A stretch of DNA of 44,050 nucleotides, from sequence record OM632667.1. One strand, given 5' to 3'. The notes beneath the pieces are model-generated. The model saw only the letters and a list, made by a program, of their open reading frames with translations. It was not told the DNA's origin and searched no databases. This document shows, piece after piece, positions 1,264-42,463 of this stretch. This DNA comes from Escherichia phage BEU33. A program made the position numbers and the translations under genes. The number at the start of each line of letters is the position of its first letter. The stretch's first letter is position 1.

Positions 1264-2745
1264 ATGTTAACTATGAACGGTCAGAATCAGGGTGTTAAGA
1301 CAAAACACCGGGAATGGCTGCACCACTTCGATAAATGGCAGAAGGTGCGCCACGCGCTGGAAGGCGACCTTATCCGCTATCTGCGCAACGTTGGGAAGAA
1401 TGAGCCGGACCCGACCTACGCGGCACAGCGCCAGGAAGAATACGAGAACGGCGCTATCTGTTACAACTTCACCAAGAGAACGCTGGCGGGGATGGTCGGC
1501 AGTGTCATGCGCAAAGACCCCGAGCAGATTATACCGCCTGAACTGGAGTACCTGTTACGTAACGCGGACGGTTCTGGTGTCGGGCTGTGGCAGCACGCAC
1601 AGGATACGCTAATGGAGATTGATTCGGTGGGTCGTGGCGGGTTGCTGGTGGACGCCCCGGAGACAGCCGCGGCAACGGCAGCCGAACAGAACGCGGGGTT
1701 ACTAAACCCGGTCATTGCATTCTACACTGCTGAGAACATCATCAACTGGCGACTGACCCGCATCGGCTCAGTGAACCGTGTGACGATGGTCGTGTTGCGT
1801 GAAGTGTGGGAATACTCAGAACCTGGAGCAGAGTTCGAAACTAAGTTCGGTGAACAGTACCGCGTCCTTGACCTGATTGATGGTCGCTACCGCCAGCGCA
1901 TTTACCGTTTCGACGCCGAGGGCGGCGCTCAGGGCGAAGTAATCGAAATCTTCCCGGAACTCGGCGAACAGTTACGCGGCAAAATCCCGTTCACGTTCAT
2001 TGGTGCAAGCAACAACGATGCAACCATTGACGATGCACCTTTGCTGCCGTTGGCTGAGCTTAATATTGGGCATTTCCGCAACAGCGCAGACAATGAGGAG
2101 TCCAGTTTCGTTGTAGGTCAGCCAACTCTGTTCATCGCCCCGGGTGAGAACATGAGCATGGAACAGTGGAAAGAAGCCAACCCACACGGCGTGCGTATGG
2201 GGTCACGTTCTGGCCATAACATCGGTTACGGCGGCAATGCGTTTCTGGTCCAGGCCGGTGAGAACAACCTAGCCAAGCAGAACATGCTGGATAAAGAGAA
2301 TCAGGCCATCCAGATTGGTGCGCAGCTTATCACCCCTACCCAGCAAATCACCGCTGAATCAGCCCGCCTGCAACGTGGTGCCGACACGTCCGTTATGGCG
2401 ACAATTGCACGTAACGTAAGCATGGCGTATACCGATGCGCTAAAGTGGGTTGCGGGTATGCTTGGGCTTAGTGACGGCACTGAAATTGAGTTCAAACTGA
2501 ACATGGAGTTCTTCCTGCAACCAATGACCGCCCAGGACCGCGCTCAGTGGATGGCGGATATTAACGCGGGCCTGTTACCGGCTACCGCTTACTATGCCGC
2601 GTTGCGTAAGGCGGGGGTAACTGACTGGACAGACGAGGACATTCAGAACGCTATCGAGGATGCGCCGCTGCCGTTAGGTGCTGTTACTCAGGTGGCGGGG
2701 GAGATTCCGCAGTCGGCGCAGCAACAGGACACCACTCAGCCGTAA
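1264..2745 (+). CDS. portal protein
   Basis: 493-aa ORF directly after terL with RBS AAGAGGA; size and position typical of portal; no motif verified. Confidence 0.6.
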   Translation: MLTMNGQNQGVKTKHREWLHHFDKWQKVRHALEGDLIRYLRNVGKNEPDPTYAAQRQEEYENGAICYNFTKRTLAGMVGSVMRKDPEQIIPPELEYLLRNADGSGVGLWQHAQDTLMEIDSVGRGGLLVDAPETAAATAAEQNAGLLNPVIAFYTAENIINWRLTRIGSVNRVTMVVLREVWEYSEPGAEFETKFGEQYRVLDLIDGRYRQRIYRFDAEGGAQGEVIEIFPELGEQLRGKIPFTFIGASNNDATIDDAPLLPLAELNIGHFRNSADNEESSFVVGQPTLFIAPGENMSMEQWKEANPHGVRMGSRSGHNIGYGGNAFLVQAGENNLAKQNMLDKENQAIQIGAQLITPTQQITAESARLQRGADTSVMATIARNVSMAYTDALKWVAGMLGLSDGTEIEFKLNMEFFLQPMTAQDRAQWMADINAGLLPATAYYAALRKAGVTDWTDEDIQNAIEDAPLPLGAVTQVAGEIPQSAQQQDTTQP

Positions 2746-2755
2746 GTTCACATAT

Positions 2756-2779
2756 AGCCCCGAAAGGGGCTTTCTTATA
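2756..2779 (+). terminator. stem-loop AGCCCC-gaaa-GGGGCT followed by T-rich tract
   Basis: Perfect 6-bp stem seen directly after portal stop; weak U tract. Confidence 0.45.
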
Positions 2780-2814
2780 GTATGCTATTAACTTTAGTAC
2801 CACAGGGTTTAACT

Positions 2815-3855
2815 ATGAGCTTACTTACATCCCTCATCAGCCATCAGATATGGCTGCAACGCACCGCATCCGGTGAGGTGAAAGACCTCACACCGTTCAT
2901 TCAGGAGATGCGGGATGAAATTAAACGGCAGGTGCTGTTATTCGGTGACGACGGTCGTAGCACTGCGCGACTGAATAAATTGTTACGCGACCTTGAGGAA
3001 GCACTAACCGGACTTACGGGCGACTGGCAGACAAAGCTGACAGAAGACCTTAAGGAACTGGCGGCGTATGAGGCCGAGTGGAACGTAAAGACTCTGACCG
3101 CCAACGTTAACGCGGAATTTGTTACCCCTACCGCGGAACAGGTGTGGGCCGCTGCCGAGTTTCAGCCATTATCGTTGAGTGACAAGCCCGTTGATTTCAC
3201 TAAGCTGATGGACGGCTGGGGTGAAACAGAAGTCGCGCGCCTGGTAACCGGCGTTAAGATGGGCTTTGTACAAGGCCAAACCACACGGCAGATTGTTAAG
3301 AACGTCGTAGGCGCTGGCGGACTGGCGGACATCTCTGAGCGTAACGCGGCCACCGTAATCCGTACTGCACTGTCTCACGTATCCAACGAAGCACGTAACG
3401 AGACGTACCGCCAGAACGACGACATCATCGAGAAATATGAGTGGGTGTCTACGCTGGACAGCCGTACCAGTACTTGCAGGGCCAGAGACGGAATGACGTG
3501 GGAAATCGGTAAAGGTCCGATGCCACCAGCCCATCCTAATTGCCGAAGTACCACTGCACCGGTAATCAGTTCAGAGTTCGACTTCCTTGATAAAGGCGCA
3601 AAACGTGCGGCTAAGGGTGCGGACGGCGGTACTCAGGTAAGCGCAGACACCACTTACTACGAGTTCCTTAAACAACAACCGGCGTGGTTTCAGGACCAGG
3701 CCCTCGGCCCGGTGCGAGGTAAGATTTTCCGTAACAGCGGTATATCGCCGGAAGAGTTTCGCGTAATATCTGTAGATGGTTTCGGGAATCCGCTCACGCT
3801 TAAGCAGATGGCGGAACTCGATAAACGTGTTGCTGATTATCTGAAAGGGGAATAA
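2815..3855 (+). CDS. head morphogenesis protein (Mu F / SPP1 gp7-like minor head protein)
   Basis: Position after portal, size; ATG 2815 preferred over ORF-track ATG 2782 which sits inside the hairpin tail without RBS. Confidence 0.5.
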   Translation: MSLLTSLISHQIWLQRTASGEVKDLTPFIQEMRDEIKRQVLLFGDDGRSTARLNKLLRDLEEALTGLTGDWQTKLTEDLKELAAYEAEWNVKTLTANVNAEFVTPTAEQVWAAAEFQPLSLSDKPVDFTKLMDGWGETEVARLVTGVKMGFVQGQTTRQIVKNVVGAGGLADISERNAATVIRTALSHVSNEARNETYRQNDDIIEKYEWVSTLDSRTSTCRARDGMTWEIGKGPMPPAHPNCRSTTAPVISSEFDFLDKGAKRAAKGADGGTQVSADTTYYEFLKQQPAWFQDQALGPVRGKIFRNSGISPEEFRVISVDGFGNPLTLKQMAELDKRVADYLKGE

Positions 3856-3907
3856 TGATGGGCTTTTTCAAAGTAACTGATGTACCGTCGCGTCGCGTAG
3901 TCCAGTC

Positions 3908-4309
3908 GTGTCTGGCTCTGGCGAGAACGTGGTGTTTATTGAAGATGAAAGTGTACTCGGTACACCAGTAGACGATATGCCGTTTGCAGACAAGACAGGT
4001 ATCGCACTCTCTGCCGCTGGTATGCTTTATGAAATTCCGTATCTGGCGGACGCTGGTGACGTGTATTTCTCTGTGCAACCGAAAGACACTGAACTTACAG
4101 ATGGCAGCGCAACTATCACTGTCGAAGTTAAGGCGGGTAAAGCACCGTATGCTCTGACCTGGTACAAAGACGGTAAGGAAGTGGTAAACGCCCCGGAAGA
4201 GGCCTTGTCTCTGACGGTTAATGCAGTTGGTGAATACTTCGTTAAAGTTACCGATGCTGATGGTGTAGAGGCTGTCAGTAAAGCTGCGAAGGTCACTAAG
4301 CCCGAATGA
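3908..4309 (+). CDS. Ig-like domain protein, possible capsid accessory/decoration
   Basis: C-terminal motif LTWYKDGKEV..GEYFVKVTDADG typical of bacterial Ig-like domains; start is GTG with no RBS, so start is uncertain. Confidence 0.45.
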   Translation: MSGSGENVVFIEDESVLGTPVDDMPFADKTGIALSAAGMLYEIPYLADAGDVYFSVQPKDTELTDGSATITVEVKAGKAPYALTWYKDGKEVVNAPEEALSLTVNAVGEYFVKVTDADGVEAVSKAAKVTKPE

Positions 4310-4340: not shown

Positions 4341-4346
4341 AACTGA

Positions 4347-4443: not shown

Positions 4444-4470
4444 GACTTTTCACTGAAAATGTGCTAAGCT
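4442..4470 (+). promoter_or_regulatory. sigma70-like promoter TTGACT-N17-TAAGCT
   Basis: Hexamers and 17-bp spacer read directly; -10 is weak. Confidence 0.45.
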
Positions 4471-4517
4471 CCACCTGAGCTTGTGAAGTATGAACAAGCG
4501 ACCGCGGCGCGGGCAGG
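4465..4517 (+). repeat. 53-bp exact direct repeat, copy 1 (copy 2 at 37402-37454)
   Basis: Identical 53-mer TAAGCTCCACCTGAGCTTGTGAAGTATGAACAAGCGACCGCGGCGCGGGCAGG at both loci. Confidence 0.85.
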
Positions 4518-4677
4518 TAACGGAGCGGGACGTAAGTCCTGAGTGTAGTTACGCTGACGCGTTCGGAAGGGCCATACTCTATTGCTTGTGTAAAAAGTAA
4601 CTGGTTTACTGAGATTACGCCGTTTCTATGTTTAAATTATAAGGACTAGCGCCCCGCTTTAAGGCGGGGCTTTACTT
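4477..4677 (+). ncRNA. candidate small RNA or regulatory leader
   Basis: About 200 nt between promoter 4442-4470 and terminator 4651-4677 with no ORF of 60 aa or more; begins with the 53-bp repeat. Confidence 0.3.
4651..4677 (+). terminator. rho-independent terminator GCCCCGC-tttaag-GCGGGGC plus TTTACTT
   Basis: Perfect 7-bp GC stem followed by T-rich tract. Confidence 0.65.
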
Positions 4678-16831: not shown

Positions 16832-18249
16832 TGAGCGACTTATACTTTCCACGTAGCCTTAAGCCGGTGGTATCAAAAGGCTACTCAATGACCAGACGTA
16901 ACAACGTCTGGAGTGTAGATTTAGCCGGTGGCGGAGTGCGTCAAGGCCGTGACACGTATTATGATGTGTTCCCAATAAGCGTAACCCTGATTACATCCGC
17001 AATGGGGCGGCAGGCGTTTCTGTCGTTCCTCGAGAAAGTCGATGGTGGCGCGTCAAGTTTCTGGATGGCGCACGACTTCGGCATGGGTATTGAGGATTAT
17101 CAAGTCACCATTACATCCACCGTCGCCGAGTCCACTGAAGACGGGATTAACTGGACAATTACTTTCACGGCAACCGCTGAGAAATCACCGTTCCAGGACC
17201 TCGAGAACCAGTGTCTGATTAACAATCTGCCAGATTTGTATGGCTGTTATGGTGATTGCCTGGGCAGTTTCCTGAAAATATACGCGAACTACGAGACTAC
17301 GTTCCCACGCATCTGGAGTAATGAAGGGCCTGCGGGATACCCGCCAATTAACCTTCTGGCGTCCGCGCTGGATAGCCGCATTGTTTATGAGGGGCCACAG
17401 GTTTACTACATCAACCGAAATGGCAATCTTGTGCGGTCCGCCGCCAATGAATGGCCTCTTACGTTCATTGACGGGGTTGCTGTTGGGCGTGTGCCACCAG
17501 AAGGCGGTTCTATTAACTACCAGATAGGCGGGTTAGGTATTGGGTGGGTACATACTTTCAACCGTATACCACTAACATCAACAGAGGACAGTGTATATCA
17601 AGGCAACCTGGCGGGCACAGTCACCCCAACAGCAGAAAATAACAGCCATTTCTTGTATGCCGAATCGCTGGGGGATTCAGTAATAGATGTTGGGGAAACA
17701 TATACTGCTACGGTAATTCTTAAGGCGAATGGTGTCCAGTTTATTCAGGTTTATTGGAACGCAGGTAGCACAGGGATTTCATCGCACTACTCTAACTTCG
17801 ACCTTATTAATAAAGCTGTATCAGGCACGGCGACATCGGCTTTCGTAACTGAAATATCTGATGGGTGGGTTCTATGCTCAACTACCACAACCGCGACAGG
17901 AGACGGTTCTGCACTATCCTCCATCGCGGTGGCAAGCGTACCGTCTATGACGTCTACCAGACTCCCGTCTTACGCATCGGATGGAGCATCTTCTTTTTCA
18001 GTTGCGTCCGCTCAGGTTGAAAAAAAACCATTTGCCACGTCGCCGATAGTAACTGACGCATCACCATCCGCCCGCCCGGCGGCATCGGCAAAAGTAGCAA
18101 TGAACGGCGCAACAAGCATCGACATTACCTATTCTGACGGCACTGTGGTAAACATTCCAGCGATTGGAGATTACGCCGCCATCCCACAGGCTGATTCTGC
18201 GTGGGGCAGTAAATACATCACTCGTATTGATTTTAATGTGGGCGGTTAA
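16831..18249 (+). CDS. minor tail protein (distal tail-like)
   Basis: Directly after tape measure, start overlaps its stop; position only. Confidence 0.45.
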   Translation: MSDLYFPRSLKPVVSKGYSMTRRNNVWSVDLAGGGVRQGRDTYYDVFPISVTLITSAMGRQAFLSFLEKVDGGASSFWMAHDFGMGIEDYQVTITSTVAESTEDGINWTITFTATAEKSPFQDLENQCLINNLPDLYGCYGDCLGSFLKIYANYETTFPRIWSNEGPAGYPPINLLASALDSRIVYEGPQVYYINRNGNLVRSAANEWPLTFIDGVAVGRVPPEGGSINYQIGGLGIGWVHTFNRIPLTSTEDSVYQGNLAGTVTPTAENNSHFLYAESLGDSVIDVGETYTATVILKANGVQFIQVYWNAGSTGISSHYSNFDLINKAVSGTATSAFVTEISDGWVLCSTTTTATGDGSALSSIAVASVPSMTSTRLPSYASDGASSFSVASAQVEKKPFATSPIVTDASPSARPAASAKVAMNGATSIDITYSDGTVVNIPAIGDYAAIPQADSAWGSKYITRIDFNVGG

Positions 18250-30693: not shown

Positions 30694-30722
30694 ACTATAA
30701 TAGCTAACTATTCAGGTGTCAA
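30694..30722 (-). promoter_or_regulatory. sigma70-like promoter TTGACA-N17-TATAGT on minus strand
   Basis: Consensus -35 with 17-bp spacer, about 60 nt upstream of the SSB-like start. Confidence 0.6.
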
Positions 30723-30911
30723 ATAAAATTTTGCAATAGGGATTATGTTCTCGAAATTAAGCATATTGGCCGGTTCGAACTCATCCTCTACAGGGTAGTA
30801 TCGCATCATGGTACCGTTCAAGAACGTGAACGATTCCGAGTGTAGATACCCATCCCAGTGCCATACCATCAAAAAATCTTTATCAGTCGGCATTTCATTT
30901 ACTTGAATCAT
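30708..30911 (-). CDS. hypothetical protein
   Basis: ATG 30911 with RBS GAGGAGG and ATGA overlap with upstream stop; ORF-track start 30941 less likely. Confidence 0.4.
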   Translation of the reverse strand: MIQVNEMPTDKDFLMVWHWDGYLHSESFTFLNGTMMRYYPVEDEFEPANMLNFENIIPIAKFYLTPE

Positions 30912-32149
30912 TCTAAATCCTCCTCTGTAACTTGATTCCACTCAGGACGTTTGTCATCCGCCGTTGCGACGCATGGCGCACCGGGCTTACGGGTAATGAA
31001 GTCTTTCAGTTCTTCTTCCGGTACAATTTTAACCGCTTCGGTCGGTGTCATAAGAACTACCTTTTGCAGCATAGTACCGTACTTCTCGAATACTGCATCG
31101 GTATCTTTCCACGCACGATTACCCGGGCGTCCTTCAACCAGTTTATACCCCGGCACTTTCTTACCGGAATGTAACGCAGCAGCCATAGCTTTCTCAACCT
31201 TGTCGATGTGCTGGCGCAACAACGGCAACTTCTCATACTCAGCTACGAGTTGCTCTGGCGTAAGCTCAAGTGCAAAGTCGTCCTCCAGTTCTTCCGCCAG
31301 CCCCGCGTTAACGGTTTTTGTACGCGCTGCGCATTGTTCAGAGAACCGACACCACTGACAACCATCTACCGACGGCTTGAAGTCCGACGCTTTCAGGTTC
31401 TTTTTACCCCGGAAATAGGCATCAAGAGCCAACAGCGCCCGTTTCTGTGCAAACTTAGCGAACAGTTCCAGACCTTCAACCGAGATGTCCCACTCCGATG
31501 CACCGCCAGCGTACGGCTGGAAGATGACCAGTCGAACGGTTGTTATGCTATAACGTCTCTTGAGTCGGCGATAAACGCCGAGAGCATAAAGCATAAGCTG
31601 CTTGTTTTCTTTCGCTTCGACACGATGCCGCCCGGTTTTCAGGTCGCAGATGATAAGCATGTGTTCGTCGGTGTTAGCCAGTTCCTGTATGGCAACAAGG
31701 TCAGCAGTTCCGAACGTCTCAACGCCTTCATACCCCGGATGCAATACCTCAGTAAGATTAACACGCATTTCCAGCTTGGCGTAAGTCGCTATATCGATAA
31801 TCGCCTTGCAGTAGTCGGTGTACTTGCGCACCTGCTCAATCATGTCCGCCGTAATCAGTACCGCGCCTTTCATCGGGCTGATTAGTGCCTTAATCTGGCC
31901 TTTGCCTTCATCCAGCACGTAAGCACCGACTTCACGCTCTAACGGCAGCGCAGTTCCGCGAATATAAGCGTTGAGATGGACCTCAGCTATGGTGTGCATT
32001 GCCGTGCCTAATACAGCGGCTTTACCTGACGTGTTAGGGATATCTTTTTCACAGGCCAGTGATGCCGCGCAACTTAGCCACTTTTTAGCCCCTGACGGCG
32101 ACAGTAAGGCATGTACATCGTTATTGCCGCCGCGTTCTTTAAGAATCAT
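30908..32149 (-). CDS. PD-(D/E)xK nuclease, DUF2800 / Cas4-like exonuclease
   Basis: N-terminal LSPSGAKKWLSCAAS, ICDLK (D/E)xK motif, C-terminal Cys cluster CQWCRFSEQC. Confidence 0.65.
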   Translation of the reverse strand: MILKERGGNNDVHALLSPSGAKKWLSCAASLACEKDIPNTSGKAAVLGTAMHTIAEVHLNAYIRGTALPLEREVGAYVLDEGKGQIKALISPMKGAVLITADMIEQVRKYTDYCKAIIDIATYAKLEMRVNLTEVLHPGYEGVETFGTADLVAIQELANTDEHMLIICDLKTGRHRVEAKENKQLMLYALGVYRRLKRRYSITTVRLVIFQPYAGGASEWDISVEGLELFAKFAQKRALLALDAYFRGKKNLKASDFKPSVDGCQWCRFSEQCAARTKTVNAGLAEELEDDFALELTPEQLVAEYEKLPLLRQHIDKVEKAMAAALHSGKKVPGYKLVEGRPGNRAWKDTDAVFEKYGTMLQKVVLMTPTEAVKIVPEEELKDFITRKPGAPCVATADDKRPEWNQVTEEDLE

Positions 32150-32508
32150 CGTAAACTCTCCAAATACAAGTTTAATGCCTGTAACTGTTCTTCTGTAGGA
32201 ATGAAAGAATCATCGCGATGTAAGTCGCTTAACTGTTGCAACATTCCTGCGAACTGACGTCTTGCGTCAACAGCGTCCATGTGATGCTTTTCACTTTTAT
32301 ATATTAATGTTTTCGGGTAATCCTCAAGCCTGCCAGACGATTTATTCACGCGGAGCGCACGAGCTTCATGCACAATGTGAATGTACTTTTTGCCGTTTTG
32401 TAACACAGTAGCTACGCCGCTGCTCTTTCTGCGGTCGCCGACTGTGTAAACCTTGTCGCCACTACGCAGATTAAGCCACCATTTATCGGTCATACCCTGT
32501 TCTCCCAC
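32146..32508 (-). CDS. hypothetical protein
   Basis: ORF translationally coupled in the minus operon. Confidence 0.4.
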   Translation of the reverse strand: MGEQGMTDKWWLNLRSGDKVYTVGDRRKSSGVATVLQNGKKYIHIVHEARALRVNKSSGRLEDYPKTLIYKSEKHHMDAVDARRQFAGMLQQLSDLHRDDSFIPTEEQLQALNLYLESLR

Positions 32509-32762
32509 TGGTCAATTAAATGTCGTGTCTGGTGCTGGCAGTGCATGGCCCAGCTATACATCGACTCGAAGACATAAAAGTCAGGCTTGGCAAAAGTCGT
32601 GCGCTTAATCTGCGACACGTGACGGCCTATATCTTTGGGCCTGGGTACTTTGCCTAAGTACGCCATCTCTTCCATCTGGTGCGCACCGGAAGGAGCGCGC
32701 AATAGCCATAGAGCCTCCGTGTTATCCCGTCGGTCAATACCTCGGTAGAGTTGGTAAATCAT
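32490..32762 (-). CDS. hypothetical protein
   Basis: ORF in the minus operon. Confidence 0.35.
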   Translation of the reverse strand: MIYQLYRGIDRRDNTEALWLLRAPSGAHQMEEMAYLGKVPRPKDIGRHVSQIKRTTFAKPDFYVFESMYSWAMHCQHQTRHLIDQWENRV

Positions 32763-32804
32763 ATTACGACCCTCTGTTAAAGCGGCCAGAAGGCCGCGGG
32801 ATAG

Positions 32805-33308
32805 TTATTCTTCTTCGAAATACTTGTTCTTAATCGCCGTCAGGCGTTTCAGGTATTCAGCCAGGTCTTCGTCTTTAATCGCGGCAATCTTCATTTTCTT
32901 ACCGGTGAACTCCTCCAGCAGTTCATCGGAATCGTCGCACGCAGCATCGCTAGGACCTTCGTTAATTGCATCGTCGATAGCCTGAATCTGGTCACGAAGA
33001 GACTGGTAATCGACCTCTTCTTTCTCTTCTTCTGGTTCTGGAGTCGGCTCCTCTACTTTAGCTTTACGCGGCTTGCGTTTCGGCTTCTCTTCTTCTTCTG
33101 CTGGTTTAGCGTCAACGATGTCTTCACCTTCAACAGGGATTTCTTTTGTTGCTTCTTTTTCGCACTCAGCTACCGCTTCTTTGGTATACACTACCGTCTC
33201 TACTTCTAACGGCGCTGCAACTTGTGCTGACTGTTTCGCACTGTTCGCAGCAATCAGTTCATGTGCAACTACGAAACGTTCCAGTAATTTTAAGAATTGT
33301 TCTAACAT
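32805..33308 (-). CDS. hypothetical highly acidic protein
   Basis: Long E/D-rich stretches; early position in leftward operon. Confidence 0.4.
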   Translation of the reverse strand: MLEQFLKLLERFVVAHELIAANSAKQSAQVAAPLEVETVVYTKEAVAECEKEATKEIPVEGEDIVDAKPAEEEEKPKRKPRKAKVEEPTPEPEEEKEEVDYQSLRDQIQAIDDAINEGPSDAACDDSDELLEEFTGKKMKIAAIKDEDLAEYLKRLTAIKNKYFEEE

Positions 33309-33330
33309 TTGTTTCTCCTGTTTATTTAGG

Positions 33331-33558
33331 TTACTCGCCGTCGCCTTCTGTAAGGCTATCGTCTATTAATTCAAATTTACCGTTTGAGTGTTGGATAGCT
33401 TCTTGCCCGCAATGGTCGCAAACCACCAGTTTATCGAATCCGTCAAACTCGTCCCCGACTACGCAAGAAAGTACAAATTTATGTTTTGTACATACTTCTT
33501 GATGTTCACCGAAAATTACCCGGAAACATTTAGTTATAGCTCCAGTGATTATGTTCAT
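33331..33558 (-). CDS. small Cys-rich protein, putative zinc ribbon
   Basis: CxxC-type pattern CDHCGQ plus upstream Cys; RBS GAGGTGA; first gene of leftward operon. Confidence 0.5.
   Translation of the reverse strand: MNIITGAITKCFRVIFGEHQEVCTKHKFVLSCVVGDEFDGFDKLVVCDHCGQEAIQHSNGKFELIDDSLTEGDGE
33359..33518. repeat. inverted repeat, copy A of about 160 bp at about 87 percent identity to 34190-34349
   Basis: Hand alignment of the reverse complement of this segment with 34190-34349. Confidence 0.7.
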
Positions 33559-33586
33559 ATCTTCACCTCTCGTTTGGTATGGGCTA

Positions 33587-33616
33587 ACTATAATAGCGAA
33601 CTATTCATGATGTCAA
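33587..33616 (-). promoter_or_regulatory. sigma70-like promoter TTGACA-N18-TATAGT on minus strand
   Basis: Consensus -35, about 25 nt upstream of the 33558 start; divergent from the HTH gene. Confidence 0.6.
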
Positions 33617-33680
33617 TGGGCTTTTCTAAAATAATTAATATGGTACTATTCACACATCAACTGACTAAGGAGTAATTGAC

Positions 33681-33896
33681 ATGCAACCATCCGAACTAGG
33701 CATCCGTGTAGAGCAACGCCGTAAAGAACTCGGCATCTCCCAGCGCCGTCTGGCGGTCCTGACCGGCGTTTCCCAGGGCGCAATTAACCAGCTGGCTCTC
33801 GGTGTAACTCAGGACGTCCGCCCGGCAACGTTGTTTAAACTGGCGGAAGTGCTGGAAGTAGACGCTAAGTGGCTGGCGTTCGGTGAAGGGGCTTGA
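33681..33896 (+). CDS. XRE-family HTH regulator (Cro-like)
   Basis: 71 aa with ISQRRLAVLTGVSQGAINQL helix-turn-helix; RBS AAGGAG; lone plus-strand gene between leftward operons. Confidence 0.75.
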   Translation: MQPSELGIRVEQRRKELGISQRRLAVLTGVSQGAINQLALGVTQDVRPATLFKLAEVLEVDAKWLAFGEGA

Positions 33897-33909
33897 CGCC
33901 CCTTTCTTT

Positions 33910-34107
33910 TTATTGCACCTTTATCGGGTATCTTTTGCGAAACTTACCTAACCCGCAGTACACGCTGTAAGCCTCTGTGTAACTGAACACAACATGATAC
34001 CCGCGCCCATAAGGAACTACGTTAAGAACTTCTACTACTTCGCCTCTGTGGTTGGTGTATTTATTACCTTTCAGTTCGTCGCTTACTTCTTTAAATTTAC
34101 CGCTCAT
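33910..34107 (-). CDS. hypothetical protein
   Basis: 65-aa ORF with strong RBS GAGGAGG. Confidence 0.45.
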   Translation of the reverse strand: MSGKFKEVSDELKGNKYTNHRGEVVEVLNVVPYGRGYHVVFSYTEAYSVYCGLGKFRKRYPIKVQ

Positions 34108-34189
34108 TCCAAATCCTCCTCTGTCACTGTCAACATTTCATTCGGTTCGTATATTGTCTTTGGAATCTTGTTATCAGTTATGTTTTCAC

Positions 34190-34349
34190 GCAATTTTCGG
34201 CGCACCGCAAGAAGTATGCACTAACCATAAATTTGTACTTTCTTGCGTGGTGGGGGATGAGTTTGATGGGTTCGATAAACTTATTGTCTGTGACCATTGC
34301 GGGCAAGAAGCTATACAACACTCAAACGGTAAATTCGAACTAATTAACG
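34190..34349 (+). repeat. inverted repeat, copy B; degenerate paralog of gene 33331-33558 without a credible start
   Basis: Encodes FGAPQEVCTNHKFVLSCVVGDEFDGFDKLIVCDHCGQEAIQHSNGKFEL on plus strand but has no ATG or RBS; overlaps the 3' end of the primase-helicase gene. Confidence 0.6.
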
Positions 34350-36542
34350 AATTCTGGTGTTCAGCCTGTAACGACCTGGGATTATCTGATTGTTTTCGTC
34401 AGTACCCGGAACAAGATACCCGGCCTCAACCATTTTCTTAATCTTCCCGCGTTCTATGGCTTCTTTGGAGTTAAACGCCTTTGCGTTGGGGTCTGACTGT
34501 GCGAGCTTATTCGCCGCGGCGACTGTGATGCCTTCGTTGCCGTTGTAGGTTCCTTCCGCCAGTTCAAACGCCGCGAGTATCGTGGCCTCCGAACTGTTGA
34601 CGGCGTTCTCTACGGTTTTACGTACATTTTCTTTACCTTCTTTCGTCAACCCTTCTTCCCGCTCTTTCTCCTCGTCAGTTTTGAACGGCTCGAAACCCCA
34701 CGGCATCAACACAAGCGCCTTGTGTGGTTCAGGCAGGTCCAGGTTTACGATTGTGCCGTATTCCTCTGTGCTACCCAGGAACTCAACCGCTCGGTATTCT
34801 TTAGGTGGCGGCGCTTCACGGAACTGTACCGACTCCAGCACCATGCCAACCGTCTTCTGCTGAGGCCCGTGCTTGAATTTCGAGTGATATACGTTTATCT
34901 GACGGTCGGTTGCACGTTCGATTGTCAGTTCCACATCAACACCCGCATACAGCGCCCCACTGCCGCGTGCTTTCTTTCCACCCTTCGGCGTATGGTGGAC
35001 AACGCCTACTGCGGCTTTAGTTGCATCGCGTACTTCTTTCAGAATGGCGATAACTTTACCCATGCCGATTGCTGTTGATGAACTGTTCTCGTCGAACTTA
35101 TCAATCGTCAGTGCCAGGGTCTGGTTAAGGGTGTCGAACGCAACCATGCCAATTGGCTCGTCGCCAGCAGTTTCGCGCATTAACTTAATCAGGCTTTTAA
35201 GTTTGCCGACTTCGCCCATATCGATGACATGTACATAATCTTTACCTTCCTCGCCGTATTTAGCCGCGAGCGCATCAATACGTGTACGTGTGGCTGCCCC
35301 ACCCTCGCCGTCGATATAGAAATGGTGACAACGCTGGGTGTCAGCCCCTGCAAACCGGTATCCGGCGGCGCTCAGGTACATCATCCCCAGCGTATAGAAT
35401 GATTTGTACGTGCCCGATTCTCCGACGATACCCCAGATACAATCCGACGGCATGTACCCCTCAACGACGAAATCAGCCTTTACCGGCTCCGGTAACTCGT
35501 CCTCCTCTGAGTCCTCGTCGTCTTCCAGGTCGTCGAGGCTGCATGAGACAGATTCACGCGCCCCCCAACCGATGGCCTCTGCGACTTCACTGAACGGCAG
35601 CCCGGTCGCATCGCACGCGTACTTCCACACCTCTTTCGGTGACAGGCCTTCTGTCGCCGTAATGTCTGTGTCGTGAATCATGGTTACGTTTGGCGCTTCA
35701 TACCCCTCGCGCGGGAAGCACAGCAGGAAGTCGTCCGGGCGCGGTGTCGGGTCGCTGTAGTTTTCAGCATGTTCCGGTGTGGCTGGCATCTTAAGGCCGC
35801 GCGGCGTCATGACGCCGCCGTACTCAAACGCCAGTGCTTCAAACGCGTCTGTAAACGCGGTGCGCAGTTCTTCCGGTATCTGGTAATCCGATGCGCTGCT
35901 AACGTCAACGGCTGGGATGCCTTCCAGTAACTCGTTCGGGTCGATCAGGTCGTTGCGGCGCGACCAGATAACGGTAGCGCCGACCGGCGGCAGGTACATC
36001 GGCTGCGACAGAGTGAACCCGCTGCGGTCCGCACCCATGCCTTTGAAGAAGTGCTCCAGCAACCCATGACGAACACGGATGATATCACCACCCTCAACTG
36101 GGCGGGCCAGCGGCATGACGACGCGAAAGCGAGGCGACTCATCGGTATGTGATGCCGTGGTGTAGAGACACATCGCCCGGCGGCTGCGATTAACCAGGCG
36201 CACCGCTTCCTGGTACTCTTCCGGTGTTGCACTGTCGAAGTCCAGATACGCCAGCGACGATTTGCTCACAGACGCGTCACAGCGATAGAAGAAGCCTTTA
36301 CGCGCTTGTTTAAAGCCACCGGTTTCCGGGTCTTTTACGGTGCTGTGTGTAGAATCGCACGCGGCCGTGATATAACCGGGCGCAGTCTTGGGGTTAATCC
36401 CGTCACGAACGGCATCGAGCGGCTGGATTAACTCTTTCAGGTCGTCCAGTGTTGCCGTGTGTGCGGTTCTGACATTTATATCCTTTTTCCCCGCCCGCGC
36501 GTTGCGGCGTGACCACGAGTAGGATAAAATTACATCGGACAT
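34344..36542 (-). CDS. DNA primase-helicase (AEP-type primase-polymerase domain plus RecA-like ATPase)
   Basis: DxD motif in AYLDFDS, SHTD motif, Walker A GESGTYKS, Walker B-like MVAFD. Confidence 0.6.
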   Translation of the reverse strand: MSDVILSYSWSRRNARAGKKDINVRTAHTATLDDLKELIQPLDAVRDGINPKTAPGYITAACDSTHSTVKDPETGGFKQARKGFFYRCDASVSKSSLAYLDFDSATPEEYQEAVRLVNRSRRAMCLYTTASHTDESPRFRVVMPLARPVEGGDIIRVRHGLLEHFFKGMGADRSGFTLSQPMYLPPVGATVIWSRRNDLIDPNELLEGIPAVDVSSASDYQIPEELRTAFTDAFEALAFEYGGVMTPRGLKMPATPEHAENYSDPTPRPDDFLLCFPREGYEAPNVTMIHDTDITATEGLSPKEVWKYACDATGLPFSEVAEAIGWGARESVSCSLDDLEDDEDSEEDELPEPVKADFVVEGYMPSDCIWGIVGESGTYKSFYTLGMMYLSAAGYRFAGADTQRCHHFYIDGEGGAATRTRIDALAAKYGEEGKDYVHVIDMGEVGKLKSLIKLMRETAGDEPIGMVAFDTLNQTLALTIDKFDENSSSTAIGMGKVIAILKEVRDATKAAVGVVHHTPKGGKKARGSGALYAGVDVELTIERATDRQINVYHSKFKHGPQQKTVGMVLESVQFREAPPPKEYRAVEFLGSTEEYGTIVNLDLPEPHKALVLMPWGFEPFKTDEEKEREEGLTKEGKENVRKTVENAVNSSEATILAAFELAEGTYNGNEGITVAAANKLAQSDPNAKAFNSKEAIERGKIKKMVEAGYLVPGTDENNQIIPGRYRLNTRIR

Positions 36543-36600
36543 GTTGTATTTCCTTCAGCAAGTAATTTGGCCTCGGCGTTCACCGCGTCGGGGCTTTCTT

Positions 36601-36834
36601 TTATTCCAGGTCTTCTAAAGTAGCGGTCATTCCGCGAACTTCAGCAAAGGCACTATATTTCCCGCCAACATTTTTCACGACGCCAGATTTAACCAGCACT
36701 TTTAACGACCCTTCAATAATGACGGAACTATAGTACTTAAAATAACTGCGGCGCAAGTCGATAACGCTGCACGACCCTTTTTTACGTGTCAACGAAACGA
36801 CCGCCGTAAATACGCGTGACTGAAACTCGGTCAT
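36601..36834 (-). CDS. hypothetical protein
   Basis: 77-aa ORF coupled to the downstream primase operon. Confidence 0.4.
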   Translation of the reverse strand: MTEFQSRVFTAVVSLTRKKGSCSVIDLRRSYFKYYSSVIIEGSLKVLVKSGVVKNVGGKYSAFAEVRGMTATLEDLE

Positions 36835-37001
36835 TTCACGTTCTCCTTAATCCACGCTTCCACTTTCTCCGGGTCGAACGTACCGGGCTGCCGGCGACCC
36901 ATAATGCGGATACAACAATCAGGGAACCTCCCACTCTTTAACCAGTTATTAAGCGTGCGGCGAGTAACCCCGATACGCTCAGCTACTTCATTCTGTGTCA
37001 T
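36831..37001 (-). CDS. AlpA/Xis-like HTH DNA-binding protein
   Basis: MTQNEVAERIGVTRRTLNNWLKSGRFP pattern; ATG 37001 with GAGGG RBS preferred over TTG 37034. Confidence 0.55.
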   Translation of the reverse strand: MTQNEVAERIGVTRRTLNNWLKSGRFPDCCIRIMGRRQPGTFDPEKVEAWIKENVK

Positions 37002-37401
37002 TCTCAAACCCTCATTATCAGTTAACGAAACCAAGTATACATTGCGAATAATGGGAAATCAAACATAATCGCACCTATTGACATTATGAAAATCTTCGTT
37101 TAAGGTGCTTCTATATCTTAGTTACTTTGATTCCTGTTCACCTTGTAATACCTGCTTGAAACGCAGCGGCGCCAAAGCGCCAGCGAAGTGTTAAGCAGCA
37201 GATTACTGAACATAAGAATTACCGTAACTTTCCTTCCGTAGTATCTCTGGTTGCCCTGGGCAAGCTCTATTCTCATCGGCAGCATATCTCTTAAGTATCT
37301 GATAATTAAAAGTTTCTATAGTTGCCGTGAGCAAGGTAGAGAGTACTTCACTCCGCTGGGGTGGGCTAACGCCCACCCACTGCGTTGCGTACTCTTTTAA
37401 G

Positions 37402-37454
37402 TAAGCTCCACCTGAGCTTGTGAAGTATGAACAAGCGACCGCGGCGCGGGCAGG
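37402..37454 (+). repeat. 53-bp exact direct repeat, copy 2
   Basis: Identical to 4465-4517; lies in the divergent intergenic region 37035-37553. Confidence 0.85.
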
Positions 37455-37490
37455 AAACGAAAGAATCACAACGGCAACGTAACTATTCTC

Positions 37491-38630: not shown

Positions 38631-38708
38631 TTGTTCTATTTCACCAAACGCAACAATCGAAGCGACTATTGCGGGAGATGCAACAATACAAACACCAATA
38701 AAATTTAC

Positions 38709-38737
38709 TTGCACGCTAAGATAGAATAGGCTACTAT
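38709..38737 (+). promoter_or_regulatory. promoter TTGCAC-N17-TACTAT
   Basis: Same hexamers and spacing as 37491-37519; precedes gene 38794. Confidence 0.5.
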
Positions 38738-38793
38738 TCATTTACACAAACGAGAGGAGAGACAGAAGATGAATGTAGTGGCGAGGGAAGGGG

Positions 38794-39282
38794 ATGGGGA
38801 TGGTGAGTAGCAAAAACGAAGTATTCGAGTACCTGATTGACCAGTTACGGCAGCACGTAAATAGCCACCCGCACAAGCAGCAGTGCGAAGACCTGGCGCA
38901 TGAGGTGCAGTCACTCAAGAATCAGTTACGTGATGCGTCAGCACTGGTGGCGGAGTTACATGAAACAATAAAACTAATGAACGAGGACTTTAACCGTGCA
39001 ACCGGGCGAGGTGGCTCACTGCCGAAAGGGGAGAGCTACGTAGTAGGTGAACATGGGCCCGAGCAACCCGGTTGCCGTAAGGAAGATACTCAGGAATGCG
39101 AGCACTCTTGGATTATTATGCTTGGGTTGTTTCTCAGCGAAGGCAATACGAACAACGTTCCTGGTAGTGAGCTTTGCTCTAAATGTGGTAAACGTGAGTG
39201 GGACGACAAGGTATATAAACCGAAAAACGATACTCAGGAATGTGAGCATGAGTGGAGATGTAAGACGGTTTTTTGGCAATAG
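38794..39282 (+). CDS. hypothetical Cys/His-rich protein with internal repeated DTQECEH(S/E)W motif
   Basis: Two copies of the motif about 45 residues apart; RBS GAGGGAAGGGG. Confidence 0.45.
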   Translation: MGMVSSKNEVFEYLIDQLRQHVNSHPHKQQCEDLAHEVQSLKNQLRDASALVAELHETIKLMNEDFNRATGRGGSLPKGESYVVGEHGPEQPGCRKEDTQECEHSWIIMLGLFLSEGNTNNVPGSELCSKCGKREWDDKVYKPKNDTQECEHEWRCKTVFWQ

Positions 39283-41305: not shown

Positions 41306-41503
41306 ATGAGTAACGTACCGACAATCGCAATAACCGAGGAACTTGAAGCCAAATGTATCGCATCAGTTATAGGGAATGGTTCGGTGGAAAAACTACAGAT
41401 GAGGGCCGCTGCGGGCTACATACGCAGGGCTAATAGCGCGCAGACTGATGTTTTACGTAAACGTTACCTCGTGAAAGCGTTAGAAATACTGGAGAATAAC
41501 TAA
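41306..41503 (+). CDS. hypothetical protein
   Basis: RBS GGAG; first gene after promoter. Confidence 0.4.
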   Translation: MSNVPTIAITEELEAKCIASVIGNGSVEKLQMRAAAGYIRRANSAQTDVLRKRYLVKALEILENN

Positions 41504-41652
41504 TGAAAATCACAGATATCGAAGCATTCAAAGACGCGCAACTGATGGCACGTATCGCCGTTAGTAACCTTAGCAACAGCATCCCGGCAGACGCGTTCTG
41601 GTTCGCTGCGATGCAGACACTTAAAGCAGCATATGCAGGAGAGAAGAAATGA
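41503..41652 (+). CDS. hypothetical 49-aa protein
   Basis: Below ORF-track cutoff; TAATG overlap; RBS GGAG. Confidence 0.3.
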   Translation: MKITDIEAFKDAQLMARIAVSNLSNSIPADAFWFAAMQTLKAAYAGEKK

Positions 41653-41846
41653 AAGTTAAAGCAGCTAAAATTCTCTGGTTACCCGCCCTTGACTATGTGA
41701 CAGAGGGTAAAGTGTATGACGTATACAACCCGAAAACTACTGGTTTTGGTTATATAGTTGCCGATGACGGCTGTGATATTTACATAGACTTTGGTAGCGA
41801 TGAAGGTGATGGTTTCCACGGCGTTAAATGGGAGATTGTCGAATGA
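41649..41846 (+). CDS. hypothetical protein
   Basis: ATGA-coupled ORF. Confidence 0.4.
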   Translation: MKVKAAKILWLPALDYVTEGKVYDVYNPKTTGFGYIVADDGCDIYIDFGSDEGDGFHGVKWEIVE

Positions 41847-42001
41847 GCGAACAAACACCAATCAGCCAACCGTTACGAGTAGGCCGTAAAGTCAGTCACA
41901 CCCCGTTCCCGACACGCGAGGAACTGATGAAACGTAACAGTTTCCCGGGGCCGGACAAGAACAAGTATCTCAATCGCATGTGGGGAGAGCGTAAAGAATG
42001 A
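41843..42001 (+). CDS. hypothetical 52-aa protein
   Basis: Below ORF-track cutoff; RBS GGGAG; ATGA overlaps at both ends. Confidence 0.3.
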   Translation: MSEQTPISQPLRVGRKVSHTPFPTREELMKRNSFPGPDKNKYLNRMWGERKE

Positions 42002-42183
42002 CTGACCGCGAATATGAAAAGATGATGGTTGAGGCCGTTAACAGCGGCGTAGACATCGGACACGTGATGTGCGTCCTGAATACTAAAATCGCGGTAGCCG
42101 AGCAAATGGTCGAGTCGCTTTACGAGACGCGCCGTGAACTGATTAACCGCTTCAACCTGAACAAAGGTGACACCAATGCCTAA
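41998..42183 (+). CDS. hypothetical protein
   Basis: Coupled ORF. Confidence 0.4.
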   Translation: MTDREYEKMMVEAVNSGVDIGHVMCVLNTKIAVAEQMVESLYETRRELINRFNLNKGDTNA

Positions 42184-42463
42184 AATCACAATCGCATCTC
42201 TCGAGCGCCGTATTCTGGTGCTTGAGTCGGAGAAACAGACGTTAGGCGGGCAACTGTCGATTAACGGTGAGTTTCAGCTGGAGGCGTTCCGTATACTCCT
42301 CGGCGTTATGAAGCAGGAACCCAGCGCATACGCGGGAGTGTTCCTTGACGAGGAAGGTTCGCAGACACTAAGTTACTACGCTACCGAAGAAGAATTAGCG
42401 TTCGACGGCCCCGCGGTATCTATCCCGCTGTTCGATAACTGGATGGTGTACGACTATGACTAA
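42176..42463 (+). CDS. hypothetical protein
   Basis: ATG 42176 with RBS AAAGGTGA preferred over GTG 42167. Confidence 0.4.
   Translation: MPKITIASLERRILVLESEKQTLGGQLSINGEFQLEAFRILLGVMKQEPSAYAGVFLDEEGSQTLSYYATEEELAFDGPAVSIPLFDNWMVYDYD

Follow-up and report, generated by a model that had tools for sequence, protein, structure and literature searches.

Gene content of the region and an inverted repeat within it

The window, i.e. the whole stretch of DNA analysed (44,050 nt; Escherichia phage BEU33, OM632667.1), belongs to a Kagunavirus (Guernseyvirinae), a virulent E. coli siphophage, and is nearly identical to Escherichia phage BEU35 (OM632668.1), on which a literature search found nothing. 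The abstracts of records on the genus Kagunavirus describe lytic phages. The region of interest contains genes for a helicase-primase, a 65-aa protein (phrog_36357), a Cro-like HTH_3 regulator, a 75-aa Cys-rich protein (phrog_32657) and a 167-aa protein (phrog_3127). The features considered below are as follows (window coordinates):

30908..30932, minus strand: stop/start junction of a nuclease gene, resembling 34104-34128 (25 nt, 92%)
33331..33558, minus strand: paralog A, an intact gene for a 75-aa Cys-rich protein (phrog_32657), with an ATG and a GAGGTGAAGAT ribosome-binding site
33359..33529, minus strand: left arm of the inverted repeat, the core of paralog A
33587..33651, minus strand: conserved putative control region, with a sigma-70-like promoter for paralog A and two operator-like palindromes
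33681..33896, plus strand: Cro-like HTH_3 regulator gene (Pfam HTH_3, E = 2.3e-12)
33885-33905: intrinsic terminator 3′ of the Cro-like gene, predicted by a terminator scan
33910..34107, minus strand: 65-aa gene (phrog_36357), inside the repeat-bounded segment
34104..34179, minus strand: native primase 3′ end, now orphaned (25 codons and the stop); it contains the ribosome-binding site of the 65-aa gene and the ATGA overlap that normally couples this gene to the primase
34180..34350, plus strand: right arm of the inverted repeat, a displaced 171-nt core of paralog B lacking a start codon, a ribosome-binding site and a stop codon of its own
34344..36542, minus strand: helicase-primase gene, shortened to 732 aa (AAA_25; phrog_3228 positions 1-742 of 766)
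38769..38810, plus strand: stub of paralog B at the donor site (MNVVAREGDGDGE and a stop, 13 codons in frame), to be compared with BEU35 35878-36090

A repeat search of the whole window returned a single inverted pair, at 33359-33529 and 34180-34350, with arms of 171 nt each and a 650-nt spacer. A base-by-base count showed the arms to be identical at 145 of 171 positions (84.8%; 26 differences), the longest exact runs common to both being 23, 23 and 20 nt. The BLASTN E value of the pair (1e-51) rules out a chance repeat. The preliminary description of this DNA had reported an inverted copy of about 160 bp with some 87% identity, bracketing the Cro-like gene and the 65-aa gene, and had named an identity below about 70% as the value at which the observation should be given up. 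The precise alignment confirms the copy and lies above that limit, and the gene coordinates place both the Cro-like gene (plus strand) and the 65-aa gene (minus strand) between the arms.

The two arms correspond to two paralogs of a Cys-rich protein family

The left arm lies within paralog A, the first gene behind a minus-strand promoter. Its product matches phrog_32657 over the full length (positions 1-75 of 75, E = 1.6e-52), and the exact protein is present on about 18-22 public contigs. Four cysteines (C23, C32, C47 and C50) and a DEFDGFDKL core are invariant in 19 aligned members of phrog_32657; the family also has an acidic tail. No match to this family was found in Pfam, PDB or PADLOC, and a single-sequence AlphaFold model of the Cys-rich protein had a pLDDT of 50, too low for use.

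Alignment of the whole window to BEU35 showed the right arm to be identical, at 171 of 171 positions, to BEU35 35895-36065. In BEU35 this segment forms the core of an intact plus-strand gene of 70 aa (35878-36090) with a good ribosome-binding site (MNVVARCFHAIFG...KFELINEEGDGDGE). The product is a second phrog_32657 paralog, referred to as B, which covers profile positions 8-75; the exact protein was found on 31 public contigs. BEU35-type Kagunaviruses thus carry A (75 aa, beside the Cro-like gene) and B (70 aa, in a variable slot about 5 kb away) on opposite strands, and the two form an inverted repeat because they lie in oppositely transcribed units. The arms in the window come from these same two sequences, and the natural pair in BEU35 is likewise a 171-nt inverted repeat of 85% identity. 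In BEU35, however, the two copies are 5,032 nt apart and both are intact genes with ribosome-binding sites, whereas in the window one copy is cut down to its core, lies 650 nt from the other and appears to be unexpressed.

Gene B is missing or replaced in many relatives. The slot that contains it, between a DUF551 gene and a gene for a 162-aa protein, takes varying gene cassettes behind a conserved promoter and ribosome-binding site (window 38700-38830; 2621-2927 in locus L007 and 2750-2917 in locus L008). It holds paralog B in BEU35, an unrelated 55-aa gene in Golestan and two unrelated small genes in phiEc4. IMG/VR locus L006 (IMGVR_UViG_3300045988_006100) shows a natural partial deletion of paralog B at 3278-3394, between 12-nt direct repeats (GACTATTGCGGG / GACCATTGCGGG), which took the promoter, the ribosome-binding site and the N-terminal two-thirds of the gene. 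The absence or replacement of B in relatives, together with the partial deletion in L006, indicates that gene B is dispensable. The A locus also varies in its alleles, the A core of fEg-Eco06 being 93.6% identical to the B core. Outside this genus, the Cys-rich phrog_32657 gene has a counterpart, about 85% identical at the nucleotide level, in the early region of the T7-like Kayfunavirus podophages (e.g. LM33_P1 1868-2036), which points to recent exchange between unrelated coliphage groups.

The right arm is an insertion, and its donor site lies in the same window

The BEU35 sequence is uninterrupted where the right arm stands in the window: window 4465-34181 aligns with BEU35 1797-31514, and window 34351-37401 aligns with BEU35 31513-34563 at 100% identity. 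The window is 100% identical to BEU35 on either side of the insert, and the right arm is an insertion relative to BEU35 and to all other relatives examined. The core of B in BEU35 sits about 4.4 kb further right than the position of the insert. At the corresponding site the window reads ATGAATGTAGTGGCGAG/GGAAGGGGATGGGGATGGTGAGTAG, with an exact in-frame deletion of 171 nt between 38785 and 38786. The core keeps its original orientation but has moved 4.4 kb leftward into the 3′ end of the helicase-primase gene. The right arm is therefore the middle part of paralog B, excised from its gene and inserted into the primase 3′ end. A local tandem or inverted duplication of A followed by decay was also considered and is ruled out, the arm being 100% identical to B and 85% identical to A.

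The plus copy retains its reading frame and lacks expression signals

The reading frame of the plus copy is kept (CFHAIFGAPQEVCTNHKFVLSCVVGDEFDGFDKLIVCDHCGQEAIQHSNGKFELIN) and is open from 34013 to 34441; its translation contains C23, C32, C47 and C50 and the DEFDGFDKL core. Nineteen of the 26 differences between the arms fall at third codon positions and, counted per codon, 16 are synonymous and seven non-synonymous. The peptide has been preserved because the differences between A and B accumulated while B was a complete gene; the synonymous excess as a sign of selection on the plus copy at its present site is ruled out, since these differences are older than the move. No in-frame ATG is available to the plus copy, and no Shine-Dalgarno-like sequence precedes any of its in-frame starts (TTG, GTG, CTG, ATT or ATA). 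It sits downstream of the cro terminator and overlaps the final 7 nt of the helicase-primase ORF (34344-36542, minus strand). Only 57 core codons are present, the native N- and C-termini having been left at 38769-38810; it is therefore not a full-length phrog_32657 gene with its own start and stop. It resembles a pseudogene in lacking translation signals and in being shorter than intact homologues. It differs from one in the mutations that would have gathered since inactivation: none are seen, all 171 nt being the same as in the intact BEU35 gene, so that the event is either extremely recent or non-biological.

Several points of the preliminary description thus stand, namely that the second copy encodes a near-identical peptide (with frame and four cysteines kept), that it has neither ATG nor RBS, and that it overlaps the primase-helicase 3′ end (by 7 nt). 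Its view of the copy as a 'decaying or unconventionally expressed paralog' holds as regards an unexpressed paralog fragment; decay in place is contradicted by the 171/171 match to an intact gene. We infer that the plus copy is a passive, unexpressed fragment that does nothing useful.

The insertion shortens the helicase-primase and separates it from the 65-aa gene

In relatives the primase is 751-769 aa long, and in all 14 cluster members read it ends in ITDNKIPKTIYEPNEML(T/V)VTEEDLE (...NTRITDNKIPKTIYEPNEML(T/V)VTEEDLE); the tail is identical in 11 of them and the other three differ at one residue (T/V). The primase stop codon and the start codon of the 65-aa gene overlap there as ATGA. In BEU35 the primase ORF runs on across the junction AATCTTGTTATCAGTT/ATTCTGG (the slash marks the insertion point), and the uninterrupted junction (..GTTATCAGTT/ATTCTGG..) is found in public sequence. 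In the window the overlap is broken, and the last two codons and the stop of the 732-aa primase are supplied by the insert. This 732-aa form is known from one contig only (NCBI, 44,050 nt), while the other 14 cluster members read have the full tail. In phage replicative helicases such as T7 gp4 the acidic tail at the C-terminus contacts the DNA polymerase, so that losing the primase tail could be harmful.

A further repeat had been noted, a stop/start junction of about 24 bp upstream of the 65-aa gene that recurs at 30908-30932, and had been taken as another sign of inversion or mosaic recombination. The duplication is real (25 nt, 92%) but its use as such a sign is not justified: the junction at 34104-34128 is the native overlap of primase stop and 65-aa start, orphaned by the insertion. 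The likeness of the two junctions comes from a common protein ending, ...VTEEDLE, which in each case is encoded over a GAGGAGG ribosome-binding site and an ATGA overlap. The PD-(D/E)XK nuclease and the native helicase-primase thus share this ending, and a 77-aa protein ends in ...TLEDLE (36601-36621). Judging from the sequences, the common ...VTEEDLE end could be an acidic docking tail, or a mere constraint of translational coupling.

Junctions of the displaced core and its probable origin

The displaced piece coincides, exactly at both ends, with the ungapped local alignment of A and B in the BEU35 context, as found by both BLASTN and the repeat search (B 35895-36065 / A 30862-30692 in BEU35). 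The true homology of the A and B genes extends beyond this 171-nt block, with indels. Microhomology amounts to 0 nt at the donor junction and 2 nt at the target (an AT ambiguity). The insertion and deletion junctions gave 0 matches in the viral, metagenome and genome collections. A query spanning the insertion matched no E. coli complete genome, and its one plasmid match covered the primase part only. The ends of the insert (ATGTTTTCACGC... / ...GAACTAATTAACGA) are not inverted repeats of each other, and no transposon-like ends or motif common to the three breakpoints were seen. No transposase is present among the annotated products of fEg-Eco06, and the insert lacks the terminal inverted repeats, target-site duplication and transposase of an IS or MITE.

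The proposed course of events would be as follows. In this record only, the core of paralog B would have been taken out of its own gene (window 38785/38786) and set down, in the same orientation, inside the helicase-primase 3′ end; its new position 650 nt from A would give rise to the inverted repeat. The insertion at the same time cuts off the conserved primase tail and breaks the primase/65-aa stop-start overlap. The right arm is, with fair confidence, a non-functional displaced core of paralog B, probably an artefact and otherwise a very recent one-off rearrangement.

From the form of the junctions, it is probable that the fragment arose while the record was being assembled, joined or edited. 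This origin is favoured because the piece equals the A/B alignment block exactly, the donor junction lacks microhomology and no sequence change has occurred. Cut-and-paste errors do occur in records of the same lineage, since BEU35 (OM632668.1, marked UNVERIFIED_ORG) is itself a misjoined pseudo-molecule. Its portal gene is split into parts of 184 aa and 313 aa (1264-1818 and 41338-42279), whereas the 493-aa gene is intact in the window (1264-2745); a block equal to window 1798-4131 has been appended at the end of the BEU35 record, together with 897 additional nt, and 35 SNPs are clustered in the first 270 nt of this block. In both cases a block has gone from where it belongs and turns up at another position, with an essential gene broken. 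They differ in that the BEU35 block measures 3.2 kb, forms the end of the record and has its start at the onset of a SNP-dense patch, while that in the window is 171 nt long, internal and bounded by paralog homology. Two points count against an artefact. In all other respects the gene order of the window is the standard one for Kagunavirus, with the portal gene intact, and ordinary de Bruijn misassembly should leave common k-mers at false joins, whereas these junctions share 0 and 2 nt. Part of the event could also be biological, as deletions in the B slot occur naturally (L006).

A genuine and very recent rearrangement is a tentative second explanation. The inverted paralogs, paired as an imperfect stem of 171 bp while intermediates of replication or recombination were single-stranded, would have set the cut points, and the excised core would have been captured at a break in the primase 3′ end. 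The ends of the segment do coincide with the limits of A/B base-pairing, gene B is dispensable, and the gene products of the phage include a PD-(D/E)XK nuclease and an ssDNA-binding protein of the Enc34 type. Moreover, the 732-aa primase appears in a public protein collection derived from the NCBI contig, so the arrangement belongs to the deposited sequence, a contig of otherwise normal order. Nevertheless, no recombination mechanism is known to us by which one of two diverged repeat arms, 5 kb apart, would be cut out and put back at another site in the absence of homology. Microhomology is lacking at the donor junction, whereas the natural L006 deletion uses a 12-nt direct repeat; the event removes a primase tail conserved in the 14 relatives read; and it is known from one contig only. 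The same contrast holds for the gene remnants common in mosaic phage genomes. These too are coding fragments without signals of their own in variable regions, but natural ones stay at their locus and show junction microhomology, such as the L006 repeat, whereas the fragment in the window has been exactly relocated with no microhomology at the donor. That long-range pairing of inverted paralogs really delimited, in the phage, a cut-and-paste of 171 bp to a site 4.4 kb away without a transposase is doubtful, and rather less likely than a recent rearrangement as such.

Were the arrangement real, it would represent the puzzling move of a segment whose limits are exactly those of paralog homology, and would place a new 650-bp repeat-bounded module round a regulator gene. 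It would also mean that a phage is viable without the conserved acidic primase tail, and would offer a natural test of whether the ...VTEEDLE tail and translational coupling to the 65-aa gene are dispensable.

Possible effects of the insert on expression

If the arrangement is real, the insert might act as a built-in antisense element, in which the primase/65-aa transcript would pair with the paralog A message and lower paralog A expression or lead to RNase III cleavage. In the predicted fold of a read-through minus-strand RNA (34380 to 33320) the 171-nt duplex is indeed dominant (MFE −413.9 kcal/mol). Such pairing would, however, be a mere by-product of complementarity; the insert is unique to this record and hence not conserved, and downstream of the insert paralog A is served by a promoter of its own. 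An antisense role is accordingly very improbable.

Even less credit can be given to the plus copy as a functional paralog expressed in an unconventional way, from a non-ATG start or as a fusion: the open frame and the four intact cysteines would allow it, but the kept peptide is explained by the 100% identity to an intact gene elsewhere, the alternative starts lack Shine-Dalgarno-like sequences, the cro terminator lies upstream, and the termini and ribosome-binding site of the gene stayed behind at 38769-38810.

The repeat did not create the arrangement of the Cro-like gene

The preliminary description had proposed that an inversion or mosaic recombination event created a regulatory switch around the Cro-like gene, and had suggested a comparison with related phages for the ancestral layout. 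That comparison shows the same arrangement without the repeat. Ten of ten independent contigs with an identical 75-aa protein have a primase of 753-755 aa whose gene overlaps the 65-aa gene, then the Cro-like gene in opposite orientation and the 75-aa gene, and in none was a second copy found near A within the fetched flanks of up to 7 kb. The annotated genomes of fEg-Eco06 and Golestan have the same layout and lack the right arm, as does BEU35 at this position. All relatives without the insert thus show the opposite-strand position of the Cro-like gene; this arrangement does not stem from the repeat, and the proposed origin has to be abandoned.

It is likewise hardly credible that the repeats bound an invertible segment by which the Cro-like gene is flipped, or that they are what such an inversion left behind. 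A 171-nt inverted repeat does flank the only plus-strand gene of the region together with the promoter and operator region, in the manner of known site-specific invertible segments (Mu G/Gin, P1 C/Cin, Salmonella Hin and E. coli fimS), where inverted repeats flank a short segment containing a regulator gene and promoter region. The window differs from these in several respects. Its arms are long and diverged (171 nt, 84.8% identical, longest exact run 23 nt) rather than short and near-identical with a crossover core. The right arm is unique to the record, the repeats not being conserved in the ten contigs, fEg-Eco06, Golestan or BEU35, and the orientation of the Cro-like gene is unchanged in all relatives lacking the second arm. 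No recombinase domain was detected by Pfam among eight proteins of the region (the products of seven window genes at 32.8-37.0 kb plus BEU35 paralog B), which contained only HTH and AAA_25 domains, and no recombinase or invertase is listed among the 76 annotated products of fEg-Eco06 (96% identical). Finally, the predicted inversion junction gave 0 matches in the viral contig collection, the only one scanned for it, in which an insertion unique to this record leaves little to be expected; no inverted isomer was found there. The case calls for caution: what resembled a switch-like inverted repeat round a regulator gene proved, by comparison with relatives, to be a displaced fragment unique to one record. 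It is an ordinary or artefactual feature of that record.

The real control region is, as read from the sequence, the conserved stretch of 122 nt that separates paralog A from the Cro-like gene. It contains the predicted promoter of paralog A (33616 to 33587, minus strand; 11 of 12 consensus matches) and operator-like palindromes at 33590-33606 and 33635-33651. In having a Cro-type HTH protein, repeated operator-like palindromes (candidate operators, as judged from their sequence) and a strong minus-strand promoter, it recalls the lambda-type cro/cI switch; it differs in that the divergent neighbour is a 75-aa Cys-rich protein without an HTH, and there is no cI-like partner.

The palindrome GAATAGTNCNCTATTAT (AATAG-N4-CTATT core) occurs eight times in the window, against 0.05 copies expected: at 4345, 13580 and 26932 on the plus strand, and at 30697, 33590, 33635, 37505 and 38723 on the minus strand. 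Several copies are in promoter-bearing intergenic regions, two of them between the 75-aa and Cro-like genes and one upstream of the B slot. They are candidate operators for one of the HTH proteins.

Other differences between the window and its nearest relatives

In the 29.7-kb block collinear between the window and BEU35 there are 11 differences (10 substitutions and one 1-nt indel), nine of which are clustered within 64 nt (window 17403-17466). Such clustering resembles what a small recombination patch, or a consensus drawn from a mixed population, would give. The window also contains a 58-nt direct repeat, 98% identical, at 4465-4522 and 37402-37459, both copies being intergenic. The second copy is missing from BEU35 and is present with 82-92% identity in Golestan and phiEc4. 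The first begins at the -10 box of a TTGACT-17-TAAGCT promoter, and the repeat may be a shared transcript leader.
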